This document shows positions 5,369 to 63,488 of a stretch of DNA of 64,000 nt, one piece after another (position 1 is the stretch's first letter; every line of letters begins with the position of its first letter). Location of the stretch: NCBI GenBank assembly GCA_035495615.1, contig DATJFP010000036.1, forward strand, positions 6,795-70,794. Direction: 5' to 3'. The notes beneath the pieces are model-generated. The model did no database searches. It saw only the letters and a program-made list of their open reading frames with translations, and was not told the origin of the DNA. This stretch comes from Verrucomicrobiia bacterium (GTDB taxonomy: Bacteria; Omnitrophota; Omnitrophia; Omnitrophales; Aquincolibacteriaceae). Made by a program: the position numbers and the translations under genes.

Positions 5369-5758
5369 ATGAGCACGAACGGGCAGCGCAAAATCATGAT
5401 TGTCGAGGACGACGAGGATCTCCACGTCCTCTACGGCCTTTACCTCCAGGGCCAGGACTACGAAATCCTGCGCGCCTACAACGGGCAGGAGGCCTTCGAT
5501 ATCCTGGAAAAAGAAAAGCCGCGGCTCATCATCCTGGACATGATCATGCCGGTCATGGACGGCGAAGAATTTTTCGTGAAGCTGCGTACGGAAAAGAAAA
5601 TCGCGGACATCCCGGTCATCATCGCGAGCGTCAACGACAAGATTTCCCCCAAGCTTCTGAACCTCGGCAACATCCACGCGATCCTCAAAAAACCGTTCAC
5701 GATCGAAACGCTTGTCCAGCACATCGAGCAGGCGTTGAGCAACGGCGCCAAGCGCTGA
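5369..5758 (+). CDS. Single-domain response regulator receiver (CheY-like)
   Basis: MIVEDDEDL...LIILDMIMPVMDG...IPVIIASVND...LKKPF, a REC domain with no output domain. Start is 19 nt after the kinase stop. Confidence 0.85.
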   Translation: MSTNGQRKIMIVEDDEDLHVLYGLYLQGQDYEILRAYNGQEAFDILEKEKPRLIILDMIMPVMDGEEFFVKLRTEKKIADIPVIIASVNDKISPKLLNLGNIHAILKKPFTIETLVQHIEQALSNGAKR

Positions 5759-7902: not shown

Positions 7903-8631
7903 GTGAGCCGTCGCGGCAAAAAAATCAAAAGCATGGGCATGGCTAAGGAAATTATTGTCATCATCGAAGACGAAAAAAACATCGTCGAGCTTTTGCAGTA
8001 CAACCTGGAAAAGGAAGGCTACCGCGTTTTCAGCGCGCTCCGGGGGGAGGAAGGCCTGGACCTGGCGCGCAAACATCTCCCGTCGGTCCTCATCCTGGAT
8101 CTGATGCTTCCCGGCATGGACGGGCTCGAAATCTGCAAGACGCTGCGCCAGAATCCGGAGACGTCTCGCATTCCCATCCTCATGCTGACCGCGCGGGGCG
8201 AGGAAGTGGACAAGGTCCTGGGCCTGGAGCTCGGGGCCGACGATTACGTGACCAAGCCTTTCAGCCCGCGCGAGCTGGTCGCCCGCATCAAGGCCGTGCT
8301 GCGGCGCTCGCAGCCCGCGCCCGACACGGCGCTCCTGCGCTGCGGCCCGTTGGAACTGAACGCCGAAACGCATCAGGTTACCCTGAAAGGAAAGATCCTG
8401 GATCTGACGTCCAAGGAATTCCATTTGTTGAAAGCGCTGATGGCGGCGCAGGGCCGCGTGCTCTCCCGCGCGTATCTCCTGGAGCACGTGTGGGAATTCG
8501 ACCGCGGCGCCAACATCGAAACGCGCACCGTGGACATGCACGTGGGACAGCTGCGAAAAAAACTGAAATCGGAGGCGCTCAAGATCGTGACCGTCAAAAA
8601 CGCCGGCTACAGGTTTGAACGTGAAGCCTAA
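7903..8631 (+). CDS. phoB: Phosphate regulon response regulator PhoB (OmpR family)
   Basis: REC domain ([12 protein letters not shown]...[12 protein letters not shown]...LMLTARGEE...VTKPF) plus winged-helix trans_reg_C ([13 protein letters not shown]...[13 protein letters not shown]...[14 protein letters not shown]). Followed by phoR and phoU. Start may be the GTG at 7903 or the ATGs at 7933/7939. Confidence 0.8.
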
Positions 8632-20067: not shown

Positions 20068-22746
20068 ATGAAACGTAATTCCACTCTTATCTTAATGGTG
20101 GGTTTTCCCAAAGAGGAAGGCCTGAGGATGAAAAAGTGCCTGCCTCAGGAATTGTCTTTCCTTTCGCTGGCCGTGGACTGCATCCTTTCGAGCAAGCAGG
20201 CCCTGAAGCAGCTCGACCACACGCAGTACGACCTTTGCATTCTGGACGCCCGTAAAAAACCCGCCGCGGCGCGCAAACTTCTCCTCGATCTCTGCGGCAA
20301 ATGTTTCCGCATGCCCGTCATCTGCGTGACCGCGGGCTCGGCCCAGGGACAGGGCATGGCGCTCCTGCGCGCAGGCGCGAAAGATTATCTGTCCGGAAAG
20401 GAGTTCAGCCCGGGCGCGCTCGCGCGCAAAATCCAGGCCGTCTTGAAAATGGAACAGAAAAAGCGCCTTCAGAAAAGGACCGAGACCGACATTCAGAGGG
20501 CGCACCGCCGCAATGAGCAATTCCTCGCCTCGATCACGTCCATTCTCATCGGCATCCGCCGCGACGGCACGGTCACGTACTGGAACCAGGTCGCGGAAAA
20601 AACATTCGGGATTCCCGCGCACCAGATCGTGCACCGGCCTTTTTCGGAATGCACGATCGCATGGGATCTGCCGCTGCTCTTGAAAGGGATCAAGGAATGC
20701 ATGCAGACGAAAAAGTCGGTGAAGGTCGAGGACGTGAAATACCGGAAGCCGGACGGGGAAGTCGGCCTTTTGGGATTCACGCTGAATCCGCTCAGCGAGG
20801 CGTTCGGCAGCCAGAGCGAAGTCCTGGTGCTGGGCGCGGACATCACCGACCGCAGGGCCTACACGCGGGACCTCGAGGCCGCGAACCAGAGGATCGCGCA
20901 GGAAAAGGCAAAGGCCGAAGCGATTCTTGCCAGCATCGGCGAAGGGCTTGTCGTGACAGACAAGGAAGGAAGGATTGTGCTGGCCAACAAGCAGGCGATC
21001 GCGACCTTCCACTGGCATCCGGTGGACATCATCGGGCAGCCGCTCCTGGAACAGGTGCCGCTCTGCGACGAAAAAGGCCGGCTTATTCCCGCGGACAGGC
21101 GGCCGACCACCATCGCGCTCATGACCGGAAGGAGAAACGCGATCACTGCAAGTTACGGCGAGGGCGCCAACATGGTGGCCCTGCAGATCCTGGCGTCGCC
21201 CGTTCTCTTCGACGGCAAGGCCGCGGGCGTCATCGTGATCTTTCGCGACATCACCCGCGAAAAAGAAATCGACAAGACGAAAACGGAATTCATTTCCACG
21301 GTGTCGCACGAACTGCGCACGCCGCTCACGTCCATCCGCGAAGGCGTGGCGCAGGTCTCCGAAGAAATCCTGGGCCCGATCAACGCGGACCAGAAGGAAT
21401 TCCTCGGGATCGCGCTGGAAGAGGTGGACCGCCTGGCCGCGATCATCAATGACCTGCTGGACATTTCCAAGATCGAGGCCGGCAAAGTCATACTGAAAAA
21501 AGCCTGGGTGGACCTGAAGGAGCTGGTGGAGCAGACCGTGTTCGCGTACCAGAGCTTGATGAAGAACAAGAGCATCGATCTGGCTGTGGACCTCCCGGAA
21601 GAAATGGCAGATGTCTTCTGCGATTCCGACAAGGTCAAGCAGGTGCTCACGAACCTGCTCACCAACGCCTACAAATTCACGCCCGACAATGGGCGCATCA
21701 CGGTGCATGTCCAAAACCGCGCGAAAGAGATCCAGGTGAACGTGCGGGACACGGGCATCGGCATCAATGAAGAAAATCTCCCGAAACTTTTCAACAAATT
21801 CGTGCAGGTCGGACGCACGGCCGGGCCCGGCATCAAGGGCACGGGCCTGGGCCTTGCGATCTGCAAGAATCTCGTCGAGATGCACGACGGCCAGATCGGC
21901 GTCGAGTCCCAGCAGGGCGAGGGAAGCTGCTTTTATTTTACGCTGCCGCGACTGCAAAAAGATTCCGTGGCGCAGAAAAACATCGATCAGGGGCTGGAAG
22001 AGCTCGGGCAGCAGGCGCCGAACCTTTCCGTCATGGTGCTGAAGCTGACCGAGCACGCCCGTGCCGGTAAGGCCGACCCGCGGCGCGTGTATGAAATCTT
22101 GAAGCCGTTCTCCAAATGGATCCAGCGGCGCCTGTTGAACGGCATCGGCGACATCTTCCTGAACGGGTTCGACGAGAGCATGGTCGTGCTGCCGGGCATG
22201 AACAAGAAAAAGGCCGTGGAGCTCGGCGAGCGGCTCAAGGCCTCGCTTGAAGAATTCGTGAAGACGCATGCCGCGGGCCGCTCGTCCGACTTCGAGATCG
22301 CCTTCGGCATTTCGACTTATCCGGAAGACGCGGACACGAGCGAGAACCTGCTGTCGAAAGCGCGGCCCTCGGAATCTTCGCACATCTCCGCGCCCGAGCG
22401 CCGCGGCTCAATGCGCCTGCCGTGCCGCGTGGCGGTCACGATCCAGGACGACGCCGGGGAATGGGCCGAATCGGAAACCGTGAATCTGGGACAAGGCGGC
22501 TTCAAGCTGTACGCAGCCGTGCCTTACCGCATCGGTGCTGTCAAGCAGGTCGAGCTGAGGCTGCCTTTGAAAAACGGCACCGTAAGGTCGAAGGCCGTCG
22601 TTGTCTGGGTACAGCGGGACGGCAAGCCCGACCGCTATCTGGTCGGATTCCAATTCGTCGGAATTTCAGAGGCCATGAAATCCAAGATCAAGCATTTCAT
22701 CGAAGAAGGCCCCGCCGAAAACGGCGATTTCCGGAAAACGGCATGA
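20068..22746 (+). CDS. Hybrid sensor histidine kinase: degenerate REC, 2 PAS, HisKA, HATPase_c, degenerate GGDEF-like, PilZ
   Basis: Pseudo-receiver (DLCILDA...VICVTAG...AKDYL), PAS regions, H-box [17 protein letters not shown] boxes ([26 protein letters not shown]), GGDEF-like segment with NGFDESMVVLPG in place of GGDEF, and C-terminal PilZ motifs RRGSMRLPCR (RxxxR) ... NLGQGGF (D/NxSxGG). Confidence 0.75.
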   Translation: MKRNSTLILMVGFPKEEGLRMKKCLPQELSFLSLAVDCILSSKQALKQLDHTQYDLCILDARKKPAAARKLLLDLCGKCFRMPVICVTAGSAQGQGMALLRAGAKDYLSGKEFSPGALARKIQAVLKMEQKKRLQKRTETDIQRAHRRNEQFLASITSILIGIRRDGTVTYWNQVAEKTFGIPAHQIVHRPFSECTIAWDLPLLLKGIKECMQTKKSVKVEDVKYRKPDGEVGLLGFTLNPLSEAFGSQSEVLVLGADITDRRAYTRDLEAANQRIAQEKAKAEAILASIGEGLVVTDKEGRIVLANKQAIATFHWHPVDIIGQPLLEQVPLCDEKGRLIPADRRPTTIALMTGRRNAITASYGEGANMVALQILASPVLFDGKAAGVIVIFRDITREKEIDKTKTEFISTVSHELRTPLTSIREGVAQVSEEILGPINADQKEFLGIALEEVDRLAAIINDLLDISKIEAGKVILKKAWVDLKELVEQTVFAYQSLMKNKSIDLAVDLPEEMADVFCDSDKVKQVLTNLLTNAYKFTPDNGRITVHVQNRAKEIQVNVRDTGIGINEENLPKLFNKFVQVGRTAGPGIKGTGLGLAICKNLVEMHDGQIGVESQQGEGSCFYFTLPRLQKDSVAQKNIDQGLEELGQQAPNLSVMVLKLTEHARAGKADPRRVYEILKPFSKWIQRRLLNGIGDIFLNGFDESMVVLPGMNKKKAVELGERLKASLEEFVKTHAAGRSSDFEIAFGISTYPEDADTSENLLSKARPSESSHISAPERRGSMRLPCRVAVTIQDDAGEWAESETVNLGQGGFKLYAAVPYRIGAVKQVELRLPLKNGTVRSKAVVVWVQRDGKPDRYLVGFQFVGISEAMKSKIKHFIEEGPAENGDFRKTA

Positions 22747-22811: not shown

Positions 22812-23204
22812 ATGAATCTCAAAGGCAAAAAAATCCTGTTCGTGGACGACGAGCCCACGATCGTCAAGATCATGATGAACCGGCTTAAATCGCATTCGTT
22901 CGTCGTCGAGACCGCGCTGAATGGCAAGGAAGCGCTCGAGAAAGCGAAGACCTTCCAGCCGGACCTCATCCTGCTCGACGTGTCCATGCCCGGCATGGAC
23001 GGCTACGAAGTCTGCCAGCTTCTCAAAAAAGACCACGCCACCGCGCACGTGCCGGTCATCATGTTCACGGCCTCGCAGGCGGAAGATTTCTTGACCAAGG
23101 GCCTCCGCGCGGGCGCCGAGGACGTCATCAATAAGCCTTTTGTCGCCGACCTTCTGGAATCCATCAAAGGGGCGTTCAACGGAAAAAAAGAAGACGAGGT
23201 TTGA
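22812..23204 (+). CDS. Single-domain response regulator receiver (CheY-like)
   Basis: ILFVDDEPTIVKIM...LILLDVSMPGMDGYEV...VIMFTAS...INKPF. Confidence 0.85.
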   Translation: MNLKGKKILFVDDEPTIVKIMMNRLKSHSFVVETALNGKEALEKAKTFQPDLILLDVSMPGMDGYEVCQLLKKDHATAHVPVIMFTASQAEDFLTKGLRAGAEDVINKPFVADLLESIKGAFNGKKEDEV

Positions 23205-23208
23205 TCTC

Positions 23209-24051
23209 ATGGAAAATGCCGTGCCGGTGCTTTTGATCGAGGACGATCCGGGAGACGTCCGCCTGGTCCGGCAGCAGCTCGCCGCCTCCAAAGACACCCA
23301 TTTCGAAGTCGTGGAAAAAGGACTGCTCTCCGAAGGCCTCGAACGCCTGGCTCAGGGCGACATCCGCGTGGTGCTTCTCGACCTTTCGCTGCCGGACGGC
23401 CGGGGCCTCCAGGCCGTCACGCGCGTGCATGAGGCTTCGCCCGCCACTCCGATCATCGCTATGAACGTCGTGGAAAACGGGACGCTCGCGCTGCAGGCCG
23501 TGCAGGAAGGCGCGCAGGATTTCTTCGTCAAGGCTGCCGGGAGTTCCGCCAGCCTGCCGCTCGTGATCCGGCTGGCCATGGAACGCAAAAAAGTCGAGCG
23601 GGAGCTGGCGCGGCTTGCGTCGTTTGCCTGGAAAAATCCGAACGCGATTTTCGAAAGCAGCTTCCAGGGCAAAGTCCTTTACCTCAATCCCGCGGGCCGG
23701 CACGCGTTTCCGGAGCTTTTGGAAAAAAGCGACCATCCTTTTTTGAGCGGCCTGCCGGCCTTGATCGAGGCGCTGCAGAAAGACCGGAAAGACGTGGCCG
23801 TGCGCGAGCTCGAGCTCGGCGAATCCATTTACGAGCAGCACGTCTGGTATATCCCCGAGGCGCGCGTGATTCACAGCACGCTCGTCGACGTCACGGAAAG
23901 AAAGCGCGCGGTCGAGGCGCTGAAACGGCGCACGGTGGAAGTCGAGCGCATGAACCGCGTCATGATCGGGCGTGAAATCAAAATGAAGGAACTCAAGGAA
24001 CAGGTCAGGCGGCTCGAGTCCCAGGGACCGCAAGGCAAGGAAGCAGCCTAA
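23209..24051 (+). CDS. Response regulator with REC + PAS-like domain and C-terminal coiled coil; no recognisable output domain
   Basis: REC (VLLIEDDPGDVRL...VVLLDLSLPDGRG...IIAMN...FFVKA), then PAS-like (NAIFESSFQGKVLYLNPAG...DVTERKRAVEAL), then charged coiled coil. Start ATG at 23209; the in-frame ATG at 23140 would overlap the upstream gene. Confidence 0.7.
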   Translation: MENAVPVLLIEDDPGDVRLVRQQLAASKDTHFEVVEKGLLSEGLERLAQGDIRVVLLDLSLPDGRGLQAVTRVHEASPATPIIAMNVVENGTLALQAVQEGAQDFFVKAAGSSASLPLVIRLAMERKKVERELARLASFAWKNPNAIFESSFQGKVLYLNPAGRHAFPELLEKSDHPFLSGLPALIEALQKDRKDVAVRELELGESIYEQHVWYIPEARVIHSTLVDVTERKRAVEALKRRTVEVERMNRVMIGREIKMKELKEQVRRLESQGPQGKEAA

Positions 24052-24070
24052 CAACGCAGGAAACAGTGTC

Positions 24071-26506
24071 ATGAAGCTCGGAACAAAACTGGTGATGGCC
24101 TTTCTCGCGATGGCGGTGCTCGTTGGCTGCGTGGGTTTTTCCTCGTTCCTCGAGCTCAAACGCGTGCTCGAACCGCTCACGTTCGATATTCCCCAGGGCC
24201 TGCGCAAAATCGAAAGCACGTCGCACCTGGATGCTCTCGCCCAGAAGATCCGCCACTACGACCAGATCCTCACCGAATCCGCGCGGGATTATGTTTACAC
24301 CGGCGGCCGGCAGTACAAGTACCGCTACAAGGAATTCGAGCCGCGCCTTGATGCCGCGATCCGGGAAGCCATCGAGAAAGGCGATGAAGAAGACAAAAAA
24401 ATATTTTCGGCCATGCAGCAGGCCAAGCTTACATTCGTTAATCTCGAGTACCAGGCGCTCGCGTCCATGGATAAGGGCATGAAGCCGGAGGCCATGCAGA
24501 TCCTCGAGACCGCGGATTACTGGCGCTCGAAAGGCGAGTACCGGCGCGGCCTGGAAGATTACATCGAGCGGCGCGGCAAGCAGTACGGCGAGTCCCTGCA
24601 GCTGACCTCGAGCCAGGTCGACGGCGCGGTGATGAACACCCACCATCTGGTTGAAAATGCCATCCAGCGGCTTTGGGTCATCAGCACGCTGGCGCTCATT
24701 CTGGGTATCTGCCTCGGCCTGTATGTTTCGCGCAGCATTCTCGCGCCCATCCGCGCGCTGAAGCAGGGCGCGGAGGTCATCGGTAAGGGCGACCTGAACC
24801 ACTCGATCGAGATTCTTTCCCGCGATGAGATCGGGCATCTGGCCTCGGCCTTCAACGACATGACGCGCAAGCTCAAGGAATCGTATGCGGGCCTCGAAGA
24901 CAAGGTGCTCGAGAAGACGAGCGAGCTCGGGCACAAGGTGGAAGAGATCGAGGAACAGAACAAGATCCTCGAAATGTCCAAGGCCGCGATGCTGAACGTG
25001 CTGGAAGACCTGGAGCATGCCAAGTCCGAAGTGGACGAGGAGCGGGCGAAAGACGAAGCCATCCTGGCCAGCATCGGCGACGGCATGATCGCGACCGACC
25101 CGCAGGGAAAAATCATCAAGGCCAACAAACAGGCGGAGGTCATGCTGGGCGTGAAGGCCGCGGACATGCTCGGGAAAACCTTCAGCGTGGTCATGGCGCA
25201 CGAAGATGAGGACGGCAACGCGGTGCCGCCGGAGCAGAGCCCGATCCCGCTGTCGCTCGCGCGCGGTAAAAAAGTGCTGGCCATCGCCTATTTCGTGCGC
25301 AAGGACGGCACGCGGTTTCCCGCGGCCATCACGGTCTCTCCGATCGTGCGCGAAAACAAAATCATGGGTGCGATCGAGATCTTCCGCGACATTTCCAAAG
25401 AAAAGGAAATCGACCGGATGAAGACCGAATTCATCAGCCTGGCCTCTCATGAGCTGCGCACACCGCTCACCGTGATCCGCGAAGGCGTTTCGCTCGTCAT
25501 CGACGAAATCCTCGGGCCGACGACGGCGGAACAGAAGTCCTTTCTGTCCATGGCGCTCAAAGACATCGACCGTCTGGGACGCATCATCAACAACCTGCTC
25601 GACGTTTCCAAGATCGAGGCGGGAAAAATGGAGATGAAGCGCGTCCACGTGAACCTGTCCGACATCGCCGCCGGCGTGGCGGAGGCGTTCGCGCAGCACG
25701 CGAAATCCAAGAAGCTGGAACTCAAGACGCGGTTTCCCAAGAAGCCCGTTGAAATGTACGTGGATAAAGATAAAATCGTCCAGGTGTTCACCAACCTCGT
25801 CGGCAACGCCATGAAATTCACGGAACAAGGGTCGGTCGAGATCTCCATCGAAGACGGCGAAGACATGATCATCTGCTCGGTGCGCGATACGGGCCGGGGC
25901 ATTTCCGAGCAGGATATGGAAAGGGTGTTCCGGAAATTCCAGCAGTTCGGCGGAGCGGCCTCCAGCGGGGAAAAGGGCACGGGCCTCGGGCTGTCGATCG
26001 CCAAGGGAATCGTGGAAATGCACCACGGCAGGATCGGCGTGGAAAGCATTCCCGGCCAGGGAACGCGGTTCTTTTTCAGCCTGCCGAAAGACACCCCCCA
26101 GAAACTTTTCCAGGACCAGCTTACCCGGGAACTCCGCGCGGCCATGAACGAGAGAAGCGCGCTTTGCGTAGTTTCGTTCACGCTGAGAGACCTTCGCTTC
26201 GGCGAGTCCGCCGGCAGCGCCAGGGAAAAGACCGCGGGAGCGCTCCTTGAAGACGTGATCCGCGCCGTCACGCACAGCCAGGCCGACCAGGTGCTGCGGG
26301 AAGGCGAGAGCGTTTTTGCCGTCTTCTCCGGCGCGGATAAAAAAGAAATCGAAAAGATAGCTTCGAAAATCCGGACGGAGTTTGCATCCGCTCTGGAAAA
26401 CGCGGGCAAGAAAGGCGCGAAGGCCGGCCTGGATTTCCGCATCGCGAATTATCCCGAGGACGGGGCAACAGGCGAGGAGCTTTTGTCGCTTCTGTCCGCC
26501 GCATGA
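24071..26506 (+). CDS. Sensor histidine kinase with extracytoplasmic sensor domain, HAMP, PAS, HisKA, HATPase_c and C-terminal degenerate GGDEF-like domain
   Basis: Signal/TM segment (LVMAFLAMAVLVGCVGF), ~170-aa periplasmic region, second TM, HAMP (DEIGHLASAFNDMTRKL), coiled coil, PAS, H-box [17 protein letters not shown] boxes, then GGDEF-like fold with ESVFAVFSG in place of GGDEFVV and ...RIANYPEDGATGEELL. Confidence 0.8.
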   Translation: MKLGTKLVMAFLAMAVLVGCVGFSSFLELKRVLEPLTFDIPQGLRKIESTSHLDALAQKIRHYDQILTESARDYVYTGGRQYKYRYKEFEPRLDAAIREAIEKGDEEDKKIFSAMQQAKLTFVNLEYQALASMDKGMKPEAMQILETADYWRSKGEYRRGLEDYIERRGKQYGESLQLTSSQVDGAVMNTHHLVENAIQRLWVISTLALILGICLGLYVSRSILAPIRALKQGAEVIGKGDLNHSIEILSRDEIGHLASAFNDMTRKLKESYAGLEDKVLEKTSELGHKVEEIEEQNKILEMSKAAMLNVLEDLEHAKSEVDEERAKDEAILASIGDGMIATDPQGKIIKANKQAEVMLGVKAADMLGKTFSVVMAHEDEDGNAVPPEQSPIPLSLARGKKVLAIAYFVRKDGTRFPAAITVSPIVRENKIMGAIEIFRDISKEKEIDRMKTEFISLASHELRTPLTVIREGVSLVIDEILGPTTAEQKSFLSMALKDIDRLGRIINNLLDVSKIEAGKMEMKRVHVNLSDIAAGVAEAFAQHAKSKKLELKTRFPKKPVEMYVDKDKIVQVFTNLVGNAMKFTEQGSVEISIEDGEDMIICSVRDTGRGISEQDMERVFRKFQQFGGAASSGEKGTGLGLSIAKGIVEMHHGRIGVESIPGQGTRFFFSLPKDTPQKLFQDQLTRELRAAMNERSALCVVSFTLRDLRFGESAGSAREKTAGALLEDVIRAVTHSQADQVLREGESVFAVFSGADKKEIEKIASKIRTEFASALENAGKKGAKAGLDFRIANYPEDGATGEELLSLLSAA

Positions 26507-26519
26507 ACGGAGTCGAGAG

Positions 26520-26885
26520 ATGAAAAAAATCCTACTGACCGACGACGAACCGAACATCGTAAAAGTCGTGTCCGCGCGCCTCAAGGCGCACAATTACGAA
26601 GTGATTCCGGCCTACGACGGCGAGTCGGCCCTCGACGCGGTCTACCGCGAAAAGCCGGACCTCATCCTCCTGGACATCATGCTGCCCAAACTCGACGGCT
26701 ACAAAGTCTGCCAGAAGCTCAAATCCGATCCGAAGTGGAAAGAGGTCCCCATCATTCTCTTTTCGGCCAAGACCCAGGCCGCGGACAAGCAGACCGGGCG
26801 CGAATACGGGGCGGACGCCTATATCGCCAAGCCTTTCCAGCCGGAACAGCTCCTGGAAACCATCAAGTACCTTCTCAAGGAATAG
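26520..26885 (+). CDS. Single-domain response regulator receiver (CheY-like)
   Basis: ILLTDDEPNIVKVV...LILLDIMLPKLDGYKV...IILFSAK...IAKPF; ATG at 26520 with GGAG 10 nt upstream. Confidence 0.85.
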   Translation: MKKILLTDDEPNIVKVVSARLKAHNYEVIPAYDGESALDAVYREKPDLILLDIMLPKLDGYKVCQKLKSDPKWKEVPIILFSAKTQAADKQTGREYGADAYIAKPFQPEQLLETIKYLLKE

Positions 26886-44027: not shown

Positions 44028-44146
44028 CAGGGGACCTGCCGCGCAAAGACCCCGCTTTGACAAAGCACGGAAGCCCGCATCAATCGGTTGACACGATTCG
44101 TAAAATACCCCAGAATGTGCGGAAAAATTTGGCCTCCTTACAACCC

Positions 44147-47100
44147 ATGATGACGAAAAGACCCCCAAAACAAGGGCTTTACGACCCTCAGTTCGAACAC
44201 GACGCCTGCGGCGTTGGATTTGTCGTCAACGTCAAAGGACGCAAATCCCACGAAATCGTCCGCCAGGCGCTCACCGTTCTTTTGAATCTGCGCCACCGCG
44301 GCGCCTGCGGCTGCGAAACCAACACCGGCGACGGCGCCGGCATTCTGCTTCAGATTCCGCATACCTTTTTGAGAGAGGCCTGTATCGGCATCGGGATACG
44401 CCTTCCGTCGGCCGGGGAATACGGCGTGGGCATGGTGTTTCTGCCGCCCGATCCCAAACAGCGCAAGGCCTGCGAAAAAGTGGTCGAGGACATTATTAAG
44501 GAAGAAGGGCAGACGCTGCTCGGCTGGCGCACGGTTCCGACCGACAACAGCACCCTCGGCCCCACGGCCAAAGCCAGTGAACCGTTCGTCCGCCAGCTTT
44601 TCATCGGACGTAATGCGAAGCTGCAGGACGACATGGCCTTCGAGCGCAAACTCTACGTGATCCGCAAGCGCGCCGAGAACATGCTCCGCTACGGCGGCGT
44701 GAAGGGCGGCGAATACTTCTACGTTTCCAGCCTTTCCTATAAAACGATGGCCTACAAAGGCATGCTCATGTCCGAGCAGGTGGACGCCTTTTATCCCGAG
44801 CTCGAGCATCCGGCCATGGAAAGCGCGCTTGCCCTCGTGCATTCGCGCTTCAGCACGAACACGTTTCCGAGCTGGGACCGCGCGCACCCCTACCGCTACG
44901 TCGCGCACAACGGCGAGATCAACACGCTGCGCGGCAACGTCAACTGGATGCACGCGCGCCAGGCCCAGTGCGCTTCCGACCTTTTCAAAGACGACATGAA
45001 GAAAATCCTTCCCGTGATCCAGCCCGACGGCAGCGACTCGGCCATGTTCGACAACTGCCTCGAATTTCTGGTGCTCGGCGGCCGCTCGCTTCCGCATGCG
45101 ATGATGATGATGATTCCCGAACCCTGGTCGGGCCACGAGACCATGAGCGATGCGAAAAAGGCCTTCTATGAATATCATGCCTCCATGATGGAGCCCTGGG
45201 ACGGCCCGGCCTCCGTCGCTTTTACCGACGGCACGCGCATCGGCGCCACGCTCGACCGAAACGGCCTGCGTCCTTCGCGTTACTACGTGACCAAAGACGA
45301 CCTCGTGGTCATGGCCTCCGAAGTCGGTGTGCTCGACATCGACGCCGAACGCATCGTCCAGAAGGGCAGGCTCCAGCCCGGCCGCATGTTCCTGATCGAC
45401 ACCGAGCAGGGCCGTATCATCGCGGATGAGGAAATCAAAAATAAAATCGCGACCGAGCAGCCGTACCGCGTTTGGCTGAACGACAATCTCGTGAGCCTCG
45501 ACCACCTCCCGGACGCGCCGGCCATGCACGAGCCGGATCACAAGACCGTACTCATCCGCCAGCAGGCGTTCGGTTTCACGTTCGAAGACCTGCGCTTCAT
45601 CATTTCGCCCATGGGGCGCGACGGCGTCGAGCCCGTCGGTTCGATGGGAACAGACACGCCGCTCGCTGTGCTGTCCAACAAGCCGCAGCTTCTTTACAGC
45701 TACTTCAAGCAGCTGTTCGCGCAGGTGACCAACCCGCCGATCGACTGCATCCGCGAGGAAATTGTGACATCCACAGGCCAGACGCTTGGTCCCGAGCGCA
45801 ATCTCCTCATGCCGGAGCCGAAGAGCTGCCGCCAGATCAAATTGAACAGCCCGATCCTGACAAATGAGGAATTCGAGAAGCTGCGCCAGATCAACCACCG
45901 CGACTTCAGATCGGTGACGCTGCCGATTCTTTACAATCCGGACAAGGGCGGAAAGGCACTGGAAGCCGCGCTTGCAAAAATGTTCCAGCTCGCGGACCGG
46001 GCCATCAAGAACAACGTGAACATCCTCGTGCTGAGCGACCGGGGCATCGACCATAAAAAAGCGCCGATTCCCGCGCTTCTGGCCGTCGCCGGATTGCATC
46101 ATCATCTGATCCGCCAGGGCACCCGCACGAAAGTCGGTCTTCTTCTCGAGTCGGGCGAGCCGCGCGAAGTGCATCATTTCGCCCTGTTGATCGGTTATGG
46201 TGTGGGCGCCGTGAACCCGTATCTTGCTTTCGAAACGCTCGATGACCTCATCCGCCAGGGCATCCTCGTGGGCCGCACGCACAAAGATGCCGTGAAAAAT
46301 TACGCCAAGGCGCTGGCCAAGGGCGTGGTGAAGACCATGTCGAAGATGGGCATCTCGACCATCGCCAGCTACTGCGGCGCGCAGATCTTCGAGGCGGTCG
46401 GCCTTAATAAGGAAGTCGTGGACAAGTATTTTACCTGGACCGCGTCCCGCATCGAAGGCGCCGGGATCGAGGAAATCAACGAAGAAGTGCGCCGCCGCCA
46501 CCGCCACGCGTTCCCGGAACGCCAGGTGAACGGCCAGACGCTCGACGCGGGCGGCCAATACCAGTGGCGCAAGGACGGTGAATATCATCTCTTCAATCCC
46601 GAGACCGTGCACAAGCTCCAGAAGTCCGTGCGCACGAAAGACTACAAGGTCTTCAAGGAATACACCAAGTCCGTGGACGAACAGTCCCGGCATTACTGCA
46701 CGCTGCGAGGCCTTCTTGAATTCAATCTGGATGGCTTGAAGCCGGTGCCGCTCGAAGAGGTCGAGCCCGTGGAAACCATCGTGAAGCGTTTCAAGACCGG
46801 CGCCATGTCCTACGGTTCCATCAGCAAGGAAGCGCATGAAAGCCTCGCCATTGCCATGAACCGCATCGGCGGCAGAAGCAACACAGGTGAAGGCGGCGAA
46901 GATCCGGCGCGTTACACGCTGGACCCGAACGGCGATTCGCGCAACAGCGCAATCAAACAGGTGGCTTCAGGCCGTTTCGGCGTGACGAGCGAGTACCTCG
47001 TGCAGGCGAAAGAATTGCAGATCAAAATGGCGCAGGGCGCCAAGCCGGGCGAAGGCGGGCAGCTTCCGGGCACGAAAGTGTATCCGTGGATCGCGAAAGT

Positions 47101-48745
47101 GCGTCTTTCCACGCCGGGCGTGGGCCTTATTTCGCCGCCGCCGCACCACGACATCTATTCCATCGAAGACCTCGCGGAGCTCATCCATGACCTCAAAAAC
47201 TCGAACCACTACGCGCGCATCAGCGTGAAGCTCGTCGCTGAAGTCGGCGTAGGTACGATCGCCGCGGGTGTCGCCAAGGCGCACGCGGACGTTGTCCTCA
47301 TCAGCGGCTACGACGGCGGCACGGGCGCTTCGCCGCTTTCCAGCATCAAGCACGCGGGCATTCCGTGGGAGCTGGGGCTTGCCGAAACGCATCAGACGCT
47401 CGTCCTGAACAATCTCCGCGACCGCATCGCGGTCGAAACCGACGGCCAGCTGAAGACCGGACGCGACGTGGCCATTGCCGCGCTGCTCGGAGCCGAGGAA
47501 TTCGGCTTTGCGACGTCGCCGCTCGTCGCGCTCGGCTGCATCATGATGCGCGTCTGCCATCTGAACACGTGTCCGGTCGGCGTGGCCACCCAGGACCCGG
47601 AGCTGCGCAAGAAATTCACGGGAGATCCGGCGCACGTCGTCAATTTCATGTTTTTCATCGCGCAGGAACTGCGTGAGATCATGGCCCAGCTCGGCTTCCG
47701 CACGCTGAACGAAATGATCGGCCGCGCGGACAGGCTGAACCCGAAAAAAGCCGTGGATCATTGGAAGGCCAAGGGGCTGGATTTCTCGAAGATCCTTTAT
47801 CAGCCCAAGGTGCCGGATTCGGTGGGCCGCTACTGCAAGGTGAAGCAGGACCATGGCCTGGAAAACGCGCTGGACAACCGCGTGCTGCTCGATCTCTGCG
47901 AGCCCGCGCTTTCGCGGAAGGAACCCGTCAAGGCGACGCTCCCGATTCGTAACACGAACCGCGTGGTCGGCACGATCCTCGGCAGCGAAGTCACGCGCCG
48001 CCACGGGCCGCAGGGGCTTCCGGACAATACCATCCATCTTCATTTCACCGGCTCGGCCGGACAGAGTTTCGGGGCTTTCATGCCGCGCGGCATGACGCTG
48101 GAACTCGAAGGCGACGCCAACGACTACGTGGGCAAGGGCCTTTCGGGCGGCCGCATCATCGTGTATCCGCCGCAGAAGGCGACCTTCGTGGCCGAAGAAA
48201 ACATCATCATCGGAAACGTGGCGTTTTATGGCGCCACGACGGGCGAAGCTTACATCCGCGGCATGGCGGGCGAGCGCTTCTGCGTGCGTAATAGCGGCGT
48301 CCATGCGGTCGTCGAATCTGTGGGCGATCACGGCTGCGAATACATGACCGGCGGTAAGGTCGTGGTGCTCGGCGCCACGGGCCGCAATTTCGCGGCCGGC
48401 ATGTCGGGCGGCGTCGCGTACGTGCTGGACGCCGCGGGCACGTTTCCCCAGAACTGCAACAAGCAGATGGTGGAACTGGAATCCCTGAACGATCCGAACG
48501 AAATCGAAGAGCTGCGCGCCATCATCCGCCGCCACGCGGATTACACGAAAAGCAAGCGCGCCGAGCAGATCCTCAACCTGTGGGAAGAAATGGTCCCGAA
48601 GTTCGTGAAGGTTCTCCCCAAAGATTACAAGAGAGTCCTGCAGGCTCTCGAACGCGTCAAAGGCGCCGGTCTCAGCGGCGACGAGGCCATCATGGCGGCG
48701 TTCGAAGAAAATGCGCGCGACCTTTCTCGCATTGGTGGCAATTAG
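44147..48745 (+). CDS. gltB: Glutamate synthase large subunit GltB
   Basis: N-terminal amidotransferase Cys ([11 protein letters not shown]), FMN and Fe-S central domains, C-terminal GXGXG domain; ~1530 aa. Confidence 0.95.
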
Positions 48746-56489: not shown

Positions 56490-59400
56490 ATGTCAAAGAA
56501 GATCCTGCTCGTGGGCCCCGCGAGCTCGGGAAAAACCCATTTACTCCTTGAGGAGTTCGAAAAGGCGCTGGTCGAATCCCGCGACCCGCTCGCCAGCGAC
56601 CTTTTTTTCATCCTGCCTTCGGCCGAGCACACCGAACGCGTGATTTCGCTCCTGCTCCAAAAGGATATTCCCGGCTTTTTCCACCGCCGCGTCACCACAT
56701 TCTCCCGGCTTTTGTCCGGGCTTTTCGAGGGCGGCGACGAAACCACAGCGACCTCCGTCACGCGCTACCTCATCCTCAAAGAAATTTTCGAGAAAGAAAA
56801 AGGCGGCGTCTTCGAAGAGGTGAAATCCAGCCCCGGATTCCTGAACCTCATGATGTCTTTCATTTCCGAGCTGAAAGAATCGGTGATCCCGCCGGCCGCG
56901 TTCCGCCGGAAGATCGACGCCCTCAAAAAATTCGAGCCTGACCTCGGGCCGAAATACGAAGCGCTGGCTTCGCTCTACGAGGCTTACCAGGCCGGGCTCG
57001 CGGCGCGCGGCCTGCGTGACCCGCATGATTCGCTCGCGGTTTATCTCGAGCGAAAAGCCGCCGGTCAGATCCGCCGGCCGCGCCTGCGCAAGGTCTGGCT
57101 GGACGGGTTTTTCGATTTCTCGGAATTGCAGGCCGCCTTCCTGAACGAGCTCTCGGAAATGGCGGACGAGATCACGGTGACGCTCACGCTCGATCCGGCG
57201 CAGGAACGCTGGGACCTTTTCGAAGGCGTGCGGGGCACGGAGGAAACGCTTTTGAAAATGGGTTTTGAGCGCGTGGAGATGAAGGCCCCGGCTCTCGCGC
57301 GGCTTTCCGGCGCGCTCGGTTACGCGGAAAAAAATCTTTTCTCCCTGGCCAAGCCCGCCGCGAAAATGAAACCGTCGAAAGAGATCACGGTGTACGAGGC
57401 CGTCGGCATCGAAGGCGAAGTGGAGATGATTGCGCGCACAATCCAGCACATGCAGAAGCAGGGCGGCTTCCGCTTCAGCGATTTTGCCATCCTCATGCGC
57501 CACATTGGCGAATACGAAGGCGTGATCCGGTCGGTTTTCTCCCGCTACGGCATCCCGGTGGAAATCCACGAACGCGAAAGGACGAAATTTTCGCCGCTCG
57601 TGCAGGTGATCGCGCGGCTTGTGCGGATCTTCAGCGATGGATGGAAGGCCGCGGACCTTCTGGAATTCCTGAAGTCGGCCTATGTGCTTCGCCTGGGCGA
57701 AGAAGAAAAAAAATATGAGTGGGCGGGCCAGCTCGAGCACGCGGCGCTTGCCGCGGGCGCGTTCCGGGGCCGTGAGGCCTGGCTGGCGCCCTGGGGCCTC
57801 GCGGACTTTGACGCGGACAAGCAAAAAAAATTGAAGGCGCTGGCGGATACCGAGGATGCGCTGCGGAATGCCCGCAGCTACGCGGAACTGCGGCGCGCGC
57901 TTGTCTGCGCGGTTGAAAAAACATTCGGAATTTTCCAGTCCTCAGACCGCGCCGAAGAGCATGTGCGCCGTGACGCGGCAAGCTATGCCCGGTTTCTTTC
58001 CCTGCTGGAGGAAATCGAAGGTTCCCTGCGCCTGCCGGAAGGGGAAGCCGTCGTGCCATTCGAGGCCTTTGCCGAACGCTTTTTTCGCCTCGTGGACTTG
58101 GATCTTTATTCGCTTCACGACCGCGATCGCAACCGCGTCCAGGTTTACAACATCTCGCTCGCGCGGCAGAAGGAATACCAGGTGGTCTTCATCGCGGGAC
58201 TTTTGGAAAAGAAATTTCCGCGGCAGATCCGCGAAGATCCCGTGCTCTCGGATTGGGAAAGGCGACTGTTCAACGGCCTTGAAGGCGAGGGCCGGCTGAA
58301 AGAGCGGCTGCAAAGCCAGGCCATGGAAAAGTATTTGTTCTACGTGGCCATGACGCGCGCGCGTTACCGGCTTTTTCTCACATATCCGAAGCTGGATCTC
58401 GAAGGCAAGGAAGCCATGCCTTCCTATTATGTGCGCGAGGTGCATTCGCTTTTCGAGGAAGACCTGCGCGTTTACAAGCAAAGCCTTTCACGGCCGTATC
58501 CCGCGCTCCAGGACGCGGTCAACACGCGCGAACTGGAAATGGCGGTGCTCGGCGACCTCTGGGTGCCGGCCCGCGACGCGTCCGAGCATGAGCCGCTGCT
58601 TTTGTACCTGACCAACGAATTTTTACGCGATGACAGGGCTGCCGGCCGCATCAAAAAGGCGCTTTACGAGGTGAAGAATGAACTCACCGAAGAGGCTATC
58701 CGTTCGTTGGACGCCTTCCGCGCCTTCCGGACCAGCGCCTCGCGCCTCGAAGAATACGCGAAGTGTTCCTTTAAATATTATGCGCATCAGGTGCTGAAGC
58801 TGAACGATCCCGAGGAAAACGAACGCGCGGCCGTGAGAGGAAAAATCCTGCATTACGTGCTCGAGCATTCGGTAAAAGAATGGGCCGCGAATCCGCGCCA
58901 GCCGCGGGAGCAGAAAAAGAAACACGCCCTGAAAATGCTGCAGCAGGCACTGCGCGAGCATCCGTACATCTTCGAAAAAAAATACCAGTTCGAGCTGGAA
59001 TACGCCGCGCTCGGGGAAATCCTCGAGCTCTTCATCGACGAAGAATTGGAACGGCTCGAGGCCTCGCCGCTCGTGCCGCGTTATTTCGAGCACGGGTTCG
59101 GGGACCAGGAAAAAGGACCGCTGCCGCCGCTGGAAATCCAGGCCGGGGACAAAACCATTCTTGTGCGCGGCCAGATCGACCGCGTCGACGTGAATGAGGA
59201 CAGGAAAGCCGCGGCGGTCATCGATTACAAAACCGCGGCCGCGTTTTCACGCGCGGCGCTGGATCTGGGCACGTCTTTGCAGCTTCCTTTATATGCCCTG
59301 GTGCTCGAGCGGCTCATGGGGCTGCGTCTGGCCGGGGCCGAACTGTACTCGCTTAAAAAGCGGGAGAAGAGCGGTTTTTATCTCGAAGAATTCCGTGAGC

Positions 59401-59717
59401 TTTTTCCGGAGCTTGGCTCGAAGCGCCCGTTCGTCATGTCGCGCGAGGCCTATGAAAAGTTTCTGGAAAAAACCCAGGACTTCATCCGTCGGCTTTCCGC
59501 GGACATGGACGCCATGAAGATCGCGGTGAAGCCCCGGGAATGCGCGGACTATTGCCCCTATCCGTCGGTCTGCCGTATTCAAAAATGGAAACTGCCTCTG
59601 ATTCTTGAAGAGATTAAAAAAGAAACCGCGCCCGCGGAAGCCGTGAAGACCGGAACTGCCGCCGTGCCGAAAGAAAAAAATGCCGAAAGCCAAAGACCCA
59701 AAACCAAAAACCGCTAA
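56490..59717 (+). CDS. addB: AddB-like helicase/nuclease subunit (PD-(D/E)XK nuclease with Fe-S cluster)
   Basis: N-terminal Walker A GPASSGKTHLL, C-terminal nuclease motif VIDYKT and Cys cluster CADYCPYPSVC; 1075 aa. Immediately precedes the AddA-like gene. Confidence 0.7.
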   Translation: MSKKILLVGPASSGKTHLLLEEFEKALVESRDPLASDLFFILPSAEHTERVISLLLQKDIPGFFHRRVTTFSRLLSGLFEGGDETTATSVTRYLILKEIFEKEKGGVFEEVKSSPGFLNLMMSFISELKESVIPPAAFRRKIDALKKFEPDLGPKYEALASLYEAYQAGLAARGLRDPHDSLAVYLERKAAGQIRRPRLRKVWLDGFFDFSELQAAFLNELSEMADEITVTLTLDPAQERWDLFEGVRGTEETLLKMGFERVEMKAPALARLSGALGYAEKNLFSLAKPAAKMKPSKEITVYEAVGIEGEVEMIARTIQHMQKQGGFRFSDFAILMRHIGEYEGVIRSVFSRYGIPVEIHERERTKFSPLVQVIARLVRIFSDGWKAADLLEFLKSAYVLRLGEEEKKYEWAGQLEHAALAAGAFRGREAWLAPWGLADFDADKQKKLKALADTEDALRNARSYAELRRALVCAVEKTFGIFQSSDRAEEHVRRDAASYARFLSLLEEIEGSLRLPEGEAVVPFEAFAERFFRLVDLDLYSLHDRDRNRVQVYNISLARQKEYQVVFIAGLLEKKFPRQIREDPVLSDWERRLFNGLEGEGRLKERLQSQAMEKYLFYVAMTRARYRLFLTYPKLDLEGKEAMPSYYVREVHSLFEEDLRVYKQSLSRPYPALQDAVNTRELEMAVLGDLWVPARDASEHEPLLLYLTNEFLRDDRAAGRIKKALYEVKNELTEEAIRSLDAFRAFRTSASRLEEYAKCSFKYYAHQVLKLNDPEENERAAVRGKILHYVLEHSVKEWAANPRQPREQKKKHALKMLQQALREHPYIFEKKYQFELEYAALGEILELFIDEELERLEASPLVPRYFEHGFGDQEKGPLPPLEIQAGDKTILVRGQIDRVDVNEDRKAAAVIDYKTAAAFSRAALDLGTSLQLPLYALVLERLMGLRLAGAELYSLKKREKSGFYLEEFRELFPELGSKRPFVMSREAYEKFLEKTQDFIRRLSADMDAMKIAVKPRECADYCPYPSVCRIQKWKLPLILEEIKKETAPAEAVKTGTAAVPKEKNAESQRPKTKNR

Positions 59718-62700: not shown

Positions 62701-63066
62701 AACGAGCGCCACGGCATGATCCACGGCGTGATCGATCTGCTTTTCCAGGACGCGCGGGGCGACTGGCATGTGCTGGATTACAAGACCGCGGTTGGAGACG
62801 AGGAAAAAGTGCAGGCCTCGGGTTACCTGATCCAGATCCAGCTTTATGCCCACGCGGTGAGGCGCATCCTCGGGGTTTATCCCGCCTCAGGCACGCTCTA
62901 CTTCCTGAAAAATAATTGGGAATACCGGCTGGACTGGAAACCCGGAGACCTCGACGACGCGGGCGAACTCATCCGCCGCATGCAGGACGAGATCGTGGAA
63001 TTCAGCGGCAAAGGGCCGGAAACCAGGGTAAAACCCGCCAAATTTTCGGGTGACAGCCCTGTCTAA
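59680..63066 (+). CDS. addA: AddA-like ATP-dependent helicase/nuclease (UvrD/Rep helicase + C-terminal PD-(D/E)XK nuclease)
   Basis: Helicase motif I AGAGTGKT, LTFT, DEFQDT, VGDYKQSVYGFRGA, C-terminal nuclease GVIDLLFQD...LDYKT; overlaps addB by 38 nt (start uncertain). Confidence 0.8.
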   Translation: MPKAKDPKPKTAKPSEIKLTPAQEAAATTLGTNILVAAGAGTGKTRVLVERFLHYVLSGQARVTEILALTFTDKAANEMKSRILKRLEDMGLESERRELESAYISTFHTFAARVLREHPLEAGVDPDFRVTEEEEAAFLREQALEELLEAGCEKGTGLFELVRVYGEDTVREAAVRMVSAAHHEGRGLEEFLRLAKPLPAKAPSPAENFKRLGEDTLAAEFGRFEASEWDWATVERFKEWQKTFSRKRDKKDSTDWQDAKRAAGDFLALRLDTFARPWKESLEAFALAFEEAYEKAKKEKGLLDFDDLGMKTARLFKKPGRAHAKLLEDYRKKFRAILVDEFQDTDYLQLELIELLAGKDNLFLVGDYKQSVYGFRGAEPHLFLEKAKAFENGAGVCIPLLENFRTAGPVLDYLNHFFSRLWAEGGGVTFDPLICKAASKPAAGTEILLVKPGETEEPADVLRMREADRIADKILDFHEQGVPFKDMAVLSQAMTKSGIYEQALKSRGIPYYVLSGGGFYHQPEIRDMMSFLAFLENPLSDIPLAAVLRSPMFQVSDNALFWLSHHAKAADAALPLYQGVTRFREIPEISEEEKSKIAFFQSLAAELLALKDRLTLTELLDAILSRTSYELTVLSDPHGARRYANLKKMINLAREFETVEPLSPGAFLRLLKRLQGQEARESEAQIESEDTGEGVRLMTVHKAKGLEFPVVFAADLGREKRSPESNRILVLSRAAYSLQVRNEKTLDFEKPWSWREMYDARKRREKEESKRLFYVAATRAKQKLVLSGAYKPPKEGDEDKSFDEMATWMAWVMACPWEEARVLEEDGTRRGTVRAIAEKRDLTQLFPEFEPVDPAALVPAAQLTKIKTEASEILARLAPADIPPPRALNLPVSAYAAYQKAPLHYWRMYEIGTRDEAPEEKMDVIEPEDEPVNAADFGTAMHAVLERVDFRNPETASLQRSLDFYFSGAGQKEKDEARAILGRFLKSPLAARLRQAKNIHRELPFILNERHGMIHGVIDLLFQDARGDWHVLDYKTAVGDEEKVQASGYLIQIQLYAHAVRRILGVYPASGTLYFLKNNWEYRLDWKPGDLDDAGELIRRMQDEIVEFSGKGPETRVKPAKFSGDSPV

Positions 63067-63125: not shown

Positions 63126-63488
63126 ATGAAAAGCAAAAAAATCCTCGTGGTAGATGATGAAGACGACGTGCGGCTCTTTCTCCAGGACTTCCTGAGTGAG
63201 CGGGACCTGGAAGTGGCTGCCGCCGGCAGCGGGGAAGAGGCCATCGAGCAGATCGAACGGAGCAAGCCGGACATCGTGCTTCTGGACCTCATGATGCCGG
63301 GCATGGACGGGCTTCAGTGCCTGGAGCAGATCAAGAAAAAGCACGCGGACATCAACATCATCATGATCACCGCGCTCAACGACGAAGCCCGGGTGGCCAA
63401 AGCCAAAAAGCTCGGCGCCCACAACTACATCCTCAAGCCTTTCAGCCTGGGTTATCTCGAAACCGAATTGATGAAATTGATCGGCTGA
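63126..63488 (+). CDS. Single-domain response regulator receiver (CheY-like)
   Basis: ILVVDDEDDVRLFL...IVLLDLMMPGMDGLQC...IIMITAL...ILKPF. Confidence 0.85.
   Translation: MKSKKILVVDDEDDVRLFLQDFLSERDLEVAAAGSGEEAIEQIERSKPDIVLLDLMMPGMDGLQCLEQIKKKHADINIIMITALNDEARVAKAKKLGAHNYILKPFSLGYLETELMKLIG

Follow-up and report, generated by a model that had tools for sequence, protein, structure and literature searches.

A stretch of 64,000 nucleotides from a bacterium of the Omnitrophota (contig DATJFP010000036.1 of assembly GCA_035495615.1; the whole stretch is referred to as the window) was analyzed around a histidine kinase gene, here named HK1, whose product ends in a PilZ domain, a receptor module for cyclic di-GMP (c-di-GMP). 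The gene lies on the forward strand and is one uninterrupted open reading frame (ORF) for 892 amino acids, with the same boundaries as in an earlier interpretation of the DNA that was made from its letters alone (the sequence-only reading). That reading had also proposed the domain anatomy, a receiver-like domain followed by two PAS domains, a kinase core, a dead GGDEF domain and PilZ at the C-terminus, and this anatomy is borne out by Pfam, by an AlphaFold model and by 14 orthologues with the same domain order (table 1). The full-length model (pLDDT, the predicted local distance difference test score, of 78.7) shows the receiver, the two PAS domains, the hairpin of the dimerization and histidine phosphotransfer (DHp) domain and the ATP-binding domain, and no membrane segment was seen in it. 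The NCBI gene model of HK1 (P0001, 872 amino acids, labelled "Verrucomicrobiae bacterium") begins at Met21 and loses strand beta1 of the receiver-like domain (window positions 20068-20130); Met1 at position 20068 is the probable start, to judge from the full-length model and from the alignment of the orthologues. Two antisense ORFs on the minus strand (20092-22383 and 24005-26593) gave no indication that they are genes and resemble the shadow frames usual in DNA of about 59% GC.

The PilZ domain is identified by both sequence profile and predicted structure. The Pfam PilZ model (PF07238) matches residues 777-879 with 54.3 bits (E 1.8e-14, cut-off 22.5) over profile positions 1-101 of 102. A separate AlphaFold model of residues 630-892, built from 18 aligned sequences (mean pLDDT 80.8), falls into two parts joined by a disordered linker, the first a domain of beta-alpha-beta-beta-alpha-beta-alpha order and the second a beta-barrel that ends in a helix. 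The barrel is six-stranded (strands within residues 783-864, pLDDT around 85) and is followed by a helix at residues 868-880. In a Foldseek search of the PDB it matched c-di-GMP-bound PilZ domains, namely those of MotI (5vx6), Alg44 (4rt0 and 4xrn), YcgR (5y6g), BcsA, and MrkH, all with a probability of 1.00, and the target TM-score for the two Alg44 structures was 0.74-0.79 (maximum 0.79). A phmmer search of the PDB sequences with residues 770-892 returned no match, and the family profile alone reached MotI. The sequence-only reading had tied its PilZ assignment to a significant PilZ match and to conserved R, D, S, and G positions in orthologues; the matches described here are significant, and the orthologues keep the R, D/N, and G positions.

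Two short motifs contribute to ligand binding by PilZ domains, and the two strings quoted for them in the sequence-only reading (RRGSMRLPCR and NLGQGGF) are both present in HK1. The first motif (ERRGSMR, nucleotides 22396-22416) is intact: ERRxxxR is invariant in 17 aligned sequences. The segment that contains it (residues 769-781) has a pLDDT below 50 in both AlphaFold models, which places RxxxR in a disordered interdomain linker, as in the solved two-domain PilZ receptors. A PilZ-only family profile aligns in register with c-di-GMP-bound MotI, where ERRxxxR corresponds to QRRQYVR and VDISEGG to YNISAGG. The second motif is defined as [D/N]hSxxG, with Asn accepted at the first position (Galperin & Chou, 10.1101/814665). 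The corresponding segment of HK1, N806-L-G808-Q-G-G811 (nucleotides 22483-22500), keeps the D/N position, the hydrophobic residue, and the final Gly but has Gly in place of Ser, so that NLGQGGF is not the clean motif it had been taken for. At least 90% of the aligned orthologues have retained the Ser, and Gly is found in HK1 and in a 74%-identical fragment (P0121). This position was surveyed in 225 PilZ domains, taken from the top 150 representatives that an exhaustive search (described below) returned: 194 have Ser and 21 (9%) have Gly, which is the commonest natural variant. About 15 of these 21 domains retain an aligned RxxxR, and P0133 and P0179 acquired their Gly independently. Judged by these alignments, Gly808 is a tolerated natural variant. 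Because the Ser of the second motif is Gly in HK1, binding of c-di-GMP by its PilZ domain is probable but not assured.

Behind the barrel, HK1 and its closer orthologues end in a common pattern, [DE]x[FYN]RK[TSI]A-COOH, which is absent from the distant members of the family and disordered in the model. It is preceded by a variable, disordered spacer of acidic, Gly, and Ser residues. The tail may serve for docking or as a tag recognized by a protease; it loosely resembles the basic C-terminal signal by which MuA is recognized by ClpX.

The domain in front of the linker has a GGDEF fold that has lost its catalytic residues. In HK1 alone, Pfam detects a partial GGDEF domain at residues 701-765 (24.4 bits, cut-off 23.8). 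A profile of the C-terminal modules of the family matches the GGDEF domain of TpbB (E 2.6e-9) over chain residues 14-147 of 161, and this near-full coverage indicates a complete GGDEF fold rather than a fragment. Foldseek likewise matches the first C-terminal domain of the HK1 model to GGDEF domains in the PDB (4urq and 5euh, T. maritima and GcbC). The signature reads GFDES in HK1 (nucleotides 22165-22179) and GSDEC, GANEC, DVGEC, and the like in the kinase-fused relatives, and its fourth residue, Glu703 in HK1, is invariant. The metal site is lost, with VLKL in strand beta1 replacing the DxD of LDIDxF, and the equivalents of the base-binding Asn and Asp residues in alpha1 and alpha2 are gone. 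The inhibitory site (I-site) is absent as well: LNGIGD-IFLN-GFDES has no Arg at the I-site position, five residues upstream of the signature, nor is the site conserved across the family. On each of these counts the GGDEF domain of HK1 is dead as judged from its motifs, and the same holds for every kinase-fused relative.

The kinase core is intact. The two DHp helices span residues 396-431 and 440-470 in the model, and His414 is invariant in the 17-sequence alignment, as are N529, N533, D561, G563, G565, G591, G593, and G595 of the ATP-binding domain. The N, G1, F, and G2 boxes read NLLTNAYKF, DTGIGI, FNKFVQ, and GTGLGLAI, respectively, and all are invariant in the family. HK1 is thus predicted to be a class-I sensor histidine kinase that is soluble and catalytically competent. 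The N-terminal receiver-like region has a complete (beta-alpha)5 fold in which Asp60 (nucleotides 20245-20247) ends strand beta3 (residues 56-60). Its match to the Pfam Response_reg model (residues 35-122) is below threshold at 26.1 bits and reaches exactly 30.2 bits when the N-terminus is scanned alone. The acidic pair of the Mg2+ site is missing from beta1 (MVGFPKEE), the Lys of beta5 comes one residue late (YLSGKEF as compared with HLMK in orthologues), and two orthologues have Glu instead of Asp at the position of Asp60. The label "pseudo-receiver" for this domain is therefore reasonable but unproven.

Table 1. Features of HK1 and of the surrounding genes. Positions are those of the window except in the last row, where they refer to the related loci named.
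Feature	Position	Strand	Evidence and remarks
HK1, whole protein	20068..22746	+	REC-like, PAS, PAS, HisKA, HATPase_c, degenerate GGDEF, PilZ; Pfam and model
Receiver-like domain, residues 6-120	20083..20427	+	Model pLDDT ~87; Pfam 26.1-30.2 bits (cut-off 30.2); orthologue alignment
PAS-A, residues 159-258	20542..20841	+	Pfam PAS_4 38.5 bits (segment scanned alone); PAS fold in model
PAS-B, residues 284-399	20917..21264	+	Pfam PAS_4 78 bits, PAS 72 bits; model
HisKA/DHp, residues 405-472	21280..21483	+	Pfam HisKA 63.3 bits; His414 (nucleotides 21307-21309) in SHELRTPLT
Catalytic ATP-binding domain, residues 479-628	21502..21951	+	Pfam HATPase_c 106.5 bits (519-628); N, G1, F, G2 boxes intact
Degenerate GGDEF, residues 631-765	21958..22362	+	Family profile against PDB, Foldseek, motif table
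Flexible linker with first c-di-GMP motif E777-R778-R779-G-S-M-R783	22363..22416	+	RxxxR = R779..R783, nucleotides 22402-22416
PilZ, residues 777-880	22396..22707	+	Beta-barrel and C-terminal helix; Pfam, Foldseek, motif statistics
Extreme C-terminal tail DFRKTA-COOH, residues 887-892	22726..22743	+	Conserved; behind variable disordered spacer
HTH_17 small DNA-binding protein, 82 aa	19790..20038	+	Pfam HTH_17 63.6 bits; 29 bp upstream of HK1
REC1, canonical single-domain response regulator, 130 aa	22812..23204	+	Pfam Response_reg 106 bits; DD, D, T, K-P all present
REC-X, receiver, PAS-like segment and coiled coil, 280 aa	23209..24051	+	Pfam Response_reg 57.6 bits
HK2, 4HB/HAMP/PAS/HisKA/HATPase_c kinase, 811 aa	24071..26506	+	Pfam; N-terminal hydrophobic segment; no PilZ
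REC3, canonical single-domain response regulator, 121 aa	26520..26885	+	Pfam Response_reg 97 bits; syntenic
MshEN-T2SSE stretches	L006 11851-14694; L007 13923-14676; L008 11588-14322; L009 6817-8346		

The distribution of the architecture was assessed by indexed and exhaustive searches. An indexed search identified the 14 full-length orthologues, which are 39-50% identical to HK1 and mostly labelled Candidatus Omnitrophota; indexed searches with the C-terminal 256 amino acids and with an alignment of the C-terminal module (degenerate GGDEF and PilZ) returned the fragment P0121 as the only match. An exhaustive profile search with the module was run against 1.84 billion cluster representatives (clusters at 50% identity) and found 22 clusters at E ≤ 1e-30. 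The domain content of 15 single-unit module matches was scanned, five of them weaker than 1e-30. Thirteen of the 15 have HisKA and HATPase_c followed by the degenerate GGDEF and the PilZ domain, with N-termini that carry no further domain, PAS, REC, or REC-PAS-PAS; the degenerate region falls below the Pfam GGDEF model in four of the scanned kinases, where it is too diverged. The other two are a partial record that ends before the PilZ domain (P0124) and a short stand-alone degenerate-GGDEF-PilZ protein of 255 amino acids (P0125), which may be a fragment, as its contig is 1 kb long, and was given no weight as a sign of gene fission. Since the module recurs with varied N-terminal sensors, it appears to travel with the kinase core as a unit. 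Overall, the kinase-degenerate GGDEF-PilZ unit defines a small family of about 20 clusters, mostly from metagenome-assembled genomes (MAGs) of the Omnitrophota, and its named members belong to the Omnitrophota with the exception of one "Spirochaetales bacterium" MAG.

The next tier of matches consists of proteins of about 400 amino acids in which a GGDEF domain (150-167 bits) with intact DxD, RxxD, and GG(D/E)EF motifs is followed by a PilZ domain. These proteins (e.g., P0159, P0161, P0165, and P0166) are the closest non-kinase relatives of the module: they share the domain order and the RxxxR linker between the domains, and differ in that they keep all three motifs that the kinase-fused family has lost. 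They are probably active, product-sensing cyclases, to judge from these motifs, and the GGDEF-PilZ architecture is on the list of Amikam & Galperin 2006 (cited in 10.1101/814665). The comparison suggests, as the simplest history, the fusion of an active GGDEF-PilZ cyclase cassette to the rear of a kinase, followed by decay of the cyclase. The other long PilZ proteins among the matches are fusions with Hsp70, REC, TonB_C, and PAS-GGDEF-EAL, with no kinase among them. The premise of the sequence-only reading that PilZ domains are normally stand-alone or joined to BcsA, YcgR, or glycosyltransferases is too narrow, but a fusion to a histidine kinase is absent from the lists that could be read: it was found neither in the PilZ surveys consulted nor in text searches of the literature, although database annotators label some family members "PilZ domain-containing protein". 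The architecture of HK1 is real, rare, conserved, and undescribed, whereas all of its parts are known and so is its regulatory logic.

The genes around HK1 are arranged in an order that is conserved throughout the family (GcpE, radical-SAM, ThiF, GreA, DUF1189, EamA on the opposite strand, Nth, HTH_17, HK1, REC, an optional REC-X, HK2, and REC). A search for related loci with a five-sequence alignment gave two species-representative genomes as its only matches. Within the window, the gaps from the HTH_17 gene to REC3 are 4-65 bp, and gene spacing and synteny are consistent with a single operon from HTH_17 to REC3. A promoter and terminator scan of the region 19.5-27.5 kb did no better than shuffled sequence, with two promoter-like signals (2.1 expected) and 17 terminator-like signals (12.4 expected). 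The HTH_17 gene is located immediately upstream of the kinase position in nine out of nine related genomes, with a sequence identity (52-85%) above that of either kinase; it persists even in L010, which has lost the remainder of the cluster. REC1 is syntenic in most related loci and HK2 in eight out of nine genomes, L010 being the one that lacks it. The most likely start of REC-X is the ATG at 23209 and not the TTG at 23140: the ORF from the TTG (23140-24051, 303 amino acids) overlaps REC1, the REC-X orthologues have 279 amino acids, and the tblastn match begins at 23227. By tblastn, the receiver region of REC-X shares 25% identity with the REC region at the N-terminus of HK1, which suggests that the two may be paralogous. 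The C-terminal 170 or so amino acids of REC-X, a PAS-like segment and a coiled coil by eye, have no Pfam match. The C-terminus of HK2 (26100-26506) is GGDEF-like and degenerate: it is matched by a profile of active GGDEF domains (E 4.3e-7) where Pfam is silent on HK2, and orthologues of HK2 carry the PF00990 flag. Kinases with a dead GGDEF tail seem to be common in the phylum, with PilZ added on HK1 alone. REC1, REC3, and REC-X are candidate partners of HK1 by their adjacency.

A gene for a pilus or secretion ATPase of the MshEN-T2SSE type follows directly behind the cluster in four out of nine genomes (L006-L009), and is itself followed by a T2SSF gene in two. MshEN is itself a c-di-GMP receptor domain; the first Arg of its published motif appears to be replaced in the N-termini of the four ATPases. 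In L007, a second HTH_17 gene is located just upstream of the ATPase gene. A correlation of the C-terminal module with the downstream ATPase was considered and rejected, as the ATPase occurs with PilZ (L006-L008) and without it (L009). The 64-kb window contains no T2SSE or T2SSF gene, and no second PilZ domain was found in the window or in the fetched loci, nor a stand-alone one in the window. Further receiver-domain coding regions were identified by tblastn at 5387-5728, 7939-8301, and 63135-63482, which makes the window rich in two-component genes. Large ORFs are also present at 44057-48745 (1562 amino acids), 56490-59717, and 59680-63066.

The reading of HK1 that is favored here, with moderate confidence, is that c-di-GMP binds to the linker and the PilZ barrel, clamps the PilZ domain onto the dead GGDEF domain and shifts the output of the kinase toward the adjacent receivers. 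The PAS-PAS region would give the kinase its primary signal. The ligand would be bound by the RxxxR arginines of the linker together with the N-L-G-x-x-G turn of the barrel, and would order the linker and clamp the barrel on the preceding domain as it does in YcgR, MotI, and PlzD. In this dimeric enzyme the dead GGDEF domain adjoins the ATP-binding domain with no other domain between, so the clamp would be felt by the kinase, and the balance of kinase, phosphatase, and phosphotransfer activity would shift toward the CheY-like REC1, REC3, and REC-X. The dead GGDEF domain itself would be a structural relic and a spacer left by an active GGDEF-PilZ cassette and not a sensor. YcgR, MotI/DgrA, and PlzD share with HK1 the placement of RxxxR in a linker between domains, on which their ligand-induced clamp is based, and in the case of MotI the barrel and both motifs are in register; they differ in that a PilZ-like barrel stands ahead of the linker where HK1 has a GGDEF fold, and in HK1 the whole unit is carried by an enzyme.

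Several known systems combine c-di-GMP with kinase signaling. SgmT of Myxococcus xanthus is a hybrid histidine kinase whose C-terminal degenerate GGDEF domain is a c-di-GMP receptor (PMC3509222). Both proteins are soluble kinases with an N-terminal small-molecule sensor, a receiver in the same polypeptide, a dead C-terminal GGDEF domain, and c-di-GMP as a second input (proposed in the case of HK1). SgmT has a GAF domain where HK1 has PAS-PAS, its receiver stands behind and not ahead of the kinase core, and it senses c-di-GMP by an intact RxxD I-site (RHPD), whereas HK1 lacks the I-site and has a PilZ domain behind the GGDEF. Because the I-site is absent, the GGDEF domain of HK1 is not a receptor of the SgmT type. 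HapZ of Pseudomonas aeruginosa is described as a PilZ adaptor that binds c-di-GMP, docks on the receiver of the hybrid kinase SagS and gates phosphotransfer (bioRxiv 10.1101/2020.02.11.943704; PMC10519070). In both cases a PilZ domain would couple c-di-GMP to kinase signaling and the receiver belongs to the kinase polypeptide, but HapZ is a separate single-domain protein that acts in trans and the PilZ domain of HK1 is in cis behind a dead GGDEF. Docking of the PilZ domain on the N-terminal receiver of HK1 itself was considered and rejected: the presence of REC and PilZ does not track in the family, and a HapZ-like PilZ-REC contact is therefore not specifically supported. The chemoreceptors Tlp1 of Azospirillum and Cbp1 of Azorhizobium (PMC6454048) also carry a C-terminal PilZ domain, as a second intracellular input, on a dimeric signaling protein that controls a histidine kinase; they are methyl-accepting chemotaxis proteins that act on CheA through CheW, whereas in HK1 the PilZ domain is on the kinase itself with a GGDEF-fold domain between. 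The kinases CckA and ShkA of Caulobacter are regulated by c-di-GMP (PMC5026420 and PMC6969517, as cited in PMC7288161). According to that account, the control of the kinase/phosphatase state is direct and allosteric, as is proposed for HK1, and ShkA uses a degenerate receiver; the ligand is bound at the ATP-binding domain (CckA) or the pseudo-receiver (ShkA) and not by a dedicated PilZ module.

Five points weigh against the clamp reading. First, the Ser at position 808 is replaced by Gly in both HK1 and its closest relative, and that this variant binds c-di-GMP is a prediction. Second, both AlphaFold models are monomeric and carry no interdomain contact information. Third, the autophosphorylation of SgmT is unchanged by c-di-GMP in vitro and its localization is changed (PMC3509222), so binding need not regulate catalysis. 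Fourth, two syntenic orthologues lack the full module (P0016 stops behind its ATP-binding domain, and PilZ is missing from P0011), which makes the module an accessory input and not a core part of the pathway. Fifth, no active GGDEF or EAL gene was found in the window or in the ten fetched loci, a result that speaks for these stretches and not for the rest of the genome, so that production of c-di-GMP by the organism is presumed.

Among the alternative explanations, the PilZ domain of this sub-lineage might bind c-di-GMP weakly or not at all and act as a ligand-independent docking domain that tethers HK1 to a receiver or to a pilus or secretion ATPase, much as the eponymous PilZ of type IV pili binds the PilB ATPase and FimX. 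The second motif of HK1 and P0121 has indeed fixed two substitutions, Ser to Gly and Asp to Asn, the barrel half of the profile has further matches in the non-binding PilZ proteins of Xanthomonas and Pseudomonas (4f48, 3dsg, and 3cnr; E 0.004-0.03), and pilus or secretion ATPase genes stand behind the cluster in the four genomes mentioned above. However, the non-binding PilZ proteins lack RxxxR, which is strictly kept in the HK1 family together with the preceding Glu-Arg; Asn is accepted at the first position of the second motif, Gly variants with an intact RxxxR are common in nature, and the window itself has no T2SSE or T2SSF gene. A docking role is considered unlikely. A second alternative comes nearest to the proposal of the sequence-only reading that the kinase both senses c-di-GMP and serves as a scaffold: the PilZ domain would bind c-di-GMP, and the effect would be spatial, through sequestration or recruitment of the kinase. 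The precedent is SgmT, the best-studied kinase with a dead GGDEF domain, which is relocalized and not altered in autophosphorylation (PMC3509222), and the conserved tail peptide behind its disordered spacer could be a docking motif. The tail is absent, though, from distant members that keep PilZ, and in a dimeric enzyme a rigid-body change two domains away from the ATP-binding domain would probably be felt. A purely spatial effect appears quite unlikely, and of the earlier proposal the sensing part is plausible from the motifs whereas no result supports scaffolding.

It is very improbable that the degenerate GGDEF domain, and not PilZ, is the nucleotide sensor, with c-di-GMP at the I-site or GTP at the remnant active site as in proteins like SgmT, PopA, and PelD: the fold is fully kept, Glu703 is invariant, and some distant members have an RRxxD-like string near the signature, but the I-site Arg is missing from HK1 and its close orthologues (LNGIGD), the spacing of the string is off by one in the distant members, and neither the metal-binding DxD nor any base-contacting residue is left. 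Finally, a mis-assembly or frameshift that joined two genes, for which the origin of the window from a MAG would speak, is effectively refuted and has a negligible probability, as HK1 is a single uninterrupted frame and the fusion recurs at 39-50% identity and with identical synteny in independent NCBI, JGI, ENA, and Logan assemblies.

The reading of c-di-GMP as a clamp on HK1 can be extended, tentatively and with more doubt than confidence, to the family as a whole. The family might be a cis-fused counterpart of HapZ-SagS in which PilZ clamps onto the relic GGDEF domain, now serving as an "xPilZ" of a new kind, and in which c-di-GMP would directly gate phosphotransfer from a PAS kinase to CheY-like receivers that control an MshEN-type ATPase in the Omnitrophota. 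If this is true, c-di-GMP would have two points of action, the kinase and the ATPase, in a two-tier circuit of a phylum that is uncultivated and may depend on hosts.

A handful of idiosyncratic cases of cross-talk between c-di-GMP and two-component signaling are known: SgmT with its I-site, CckA with its ATP-binding domain, ShkA with its pseudo-receiver, and HapZ, which acts in trans. A kinase with a portable PilZ receptor in cis would be the simplest form of this cross-talk. The organism is uncultured, and what goes beyond domain identity is predicted, which sets practical limits; HK1 would be experimentally convenient, as a single soluble polypeptide for which the natural Ser/Gly variants and the orthologues without the module provide built-in controls. 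The family also appears to record an evolutionary path, in which an active GGDEF-PilZ cassette was captured by a kinase and the cyclase decayed to a structural domain. To our knowledge, second-messenger signaling in the Omnitrophota has not been studied so far, and HK1 and its relatives would offer a first handle on it.

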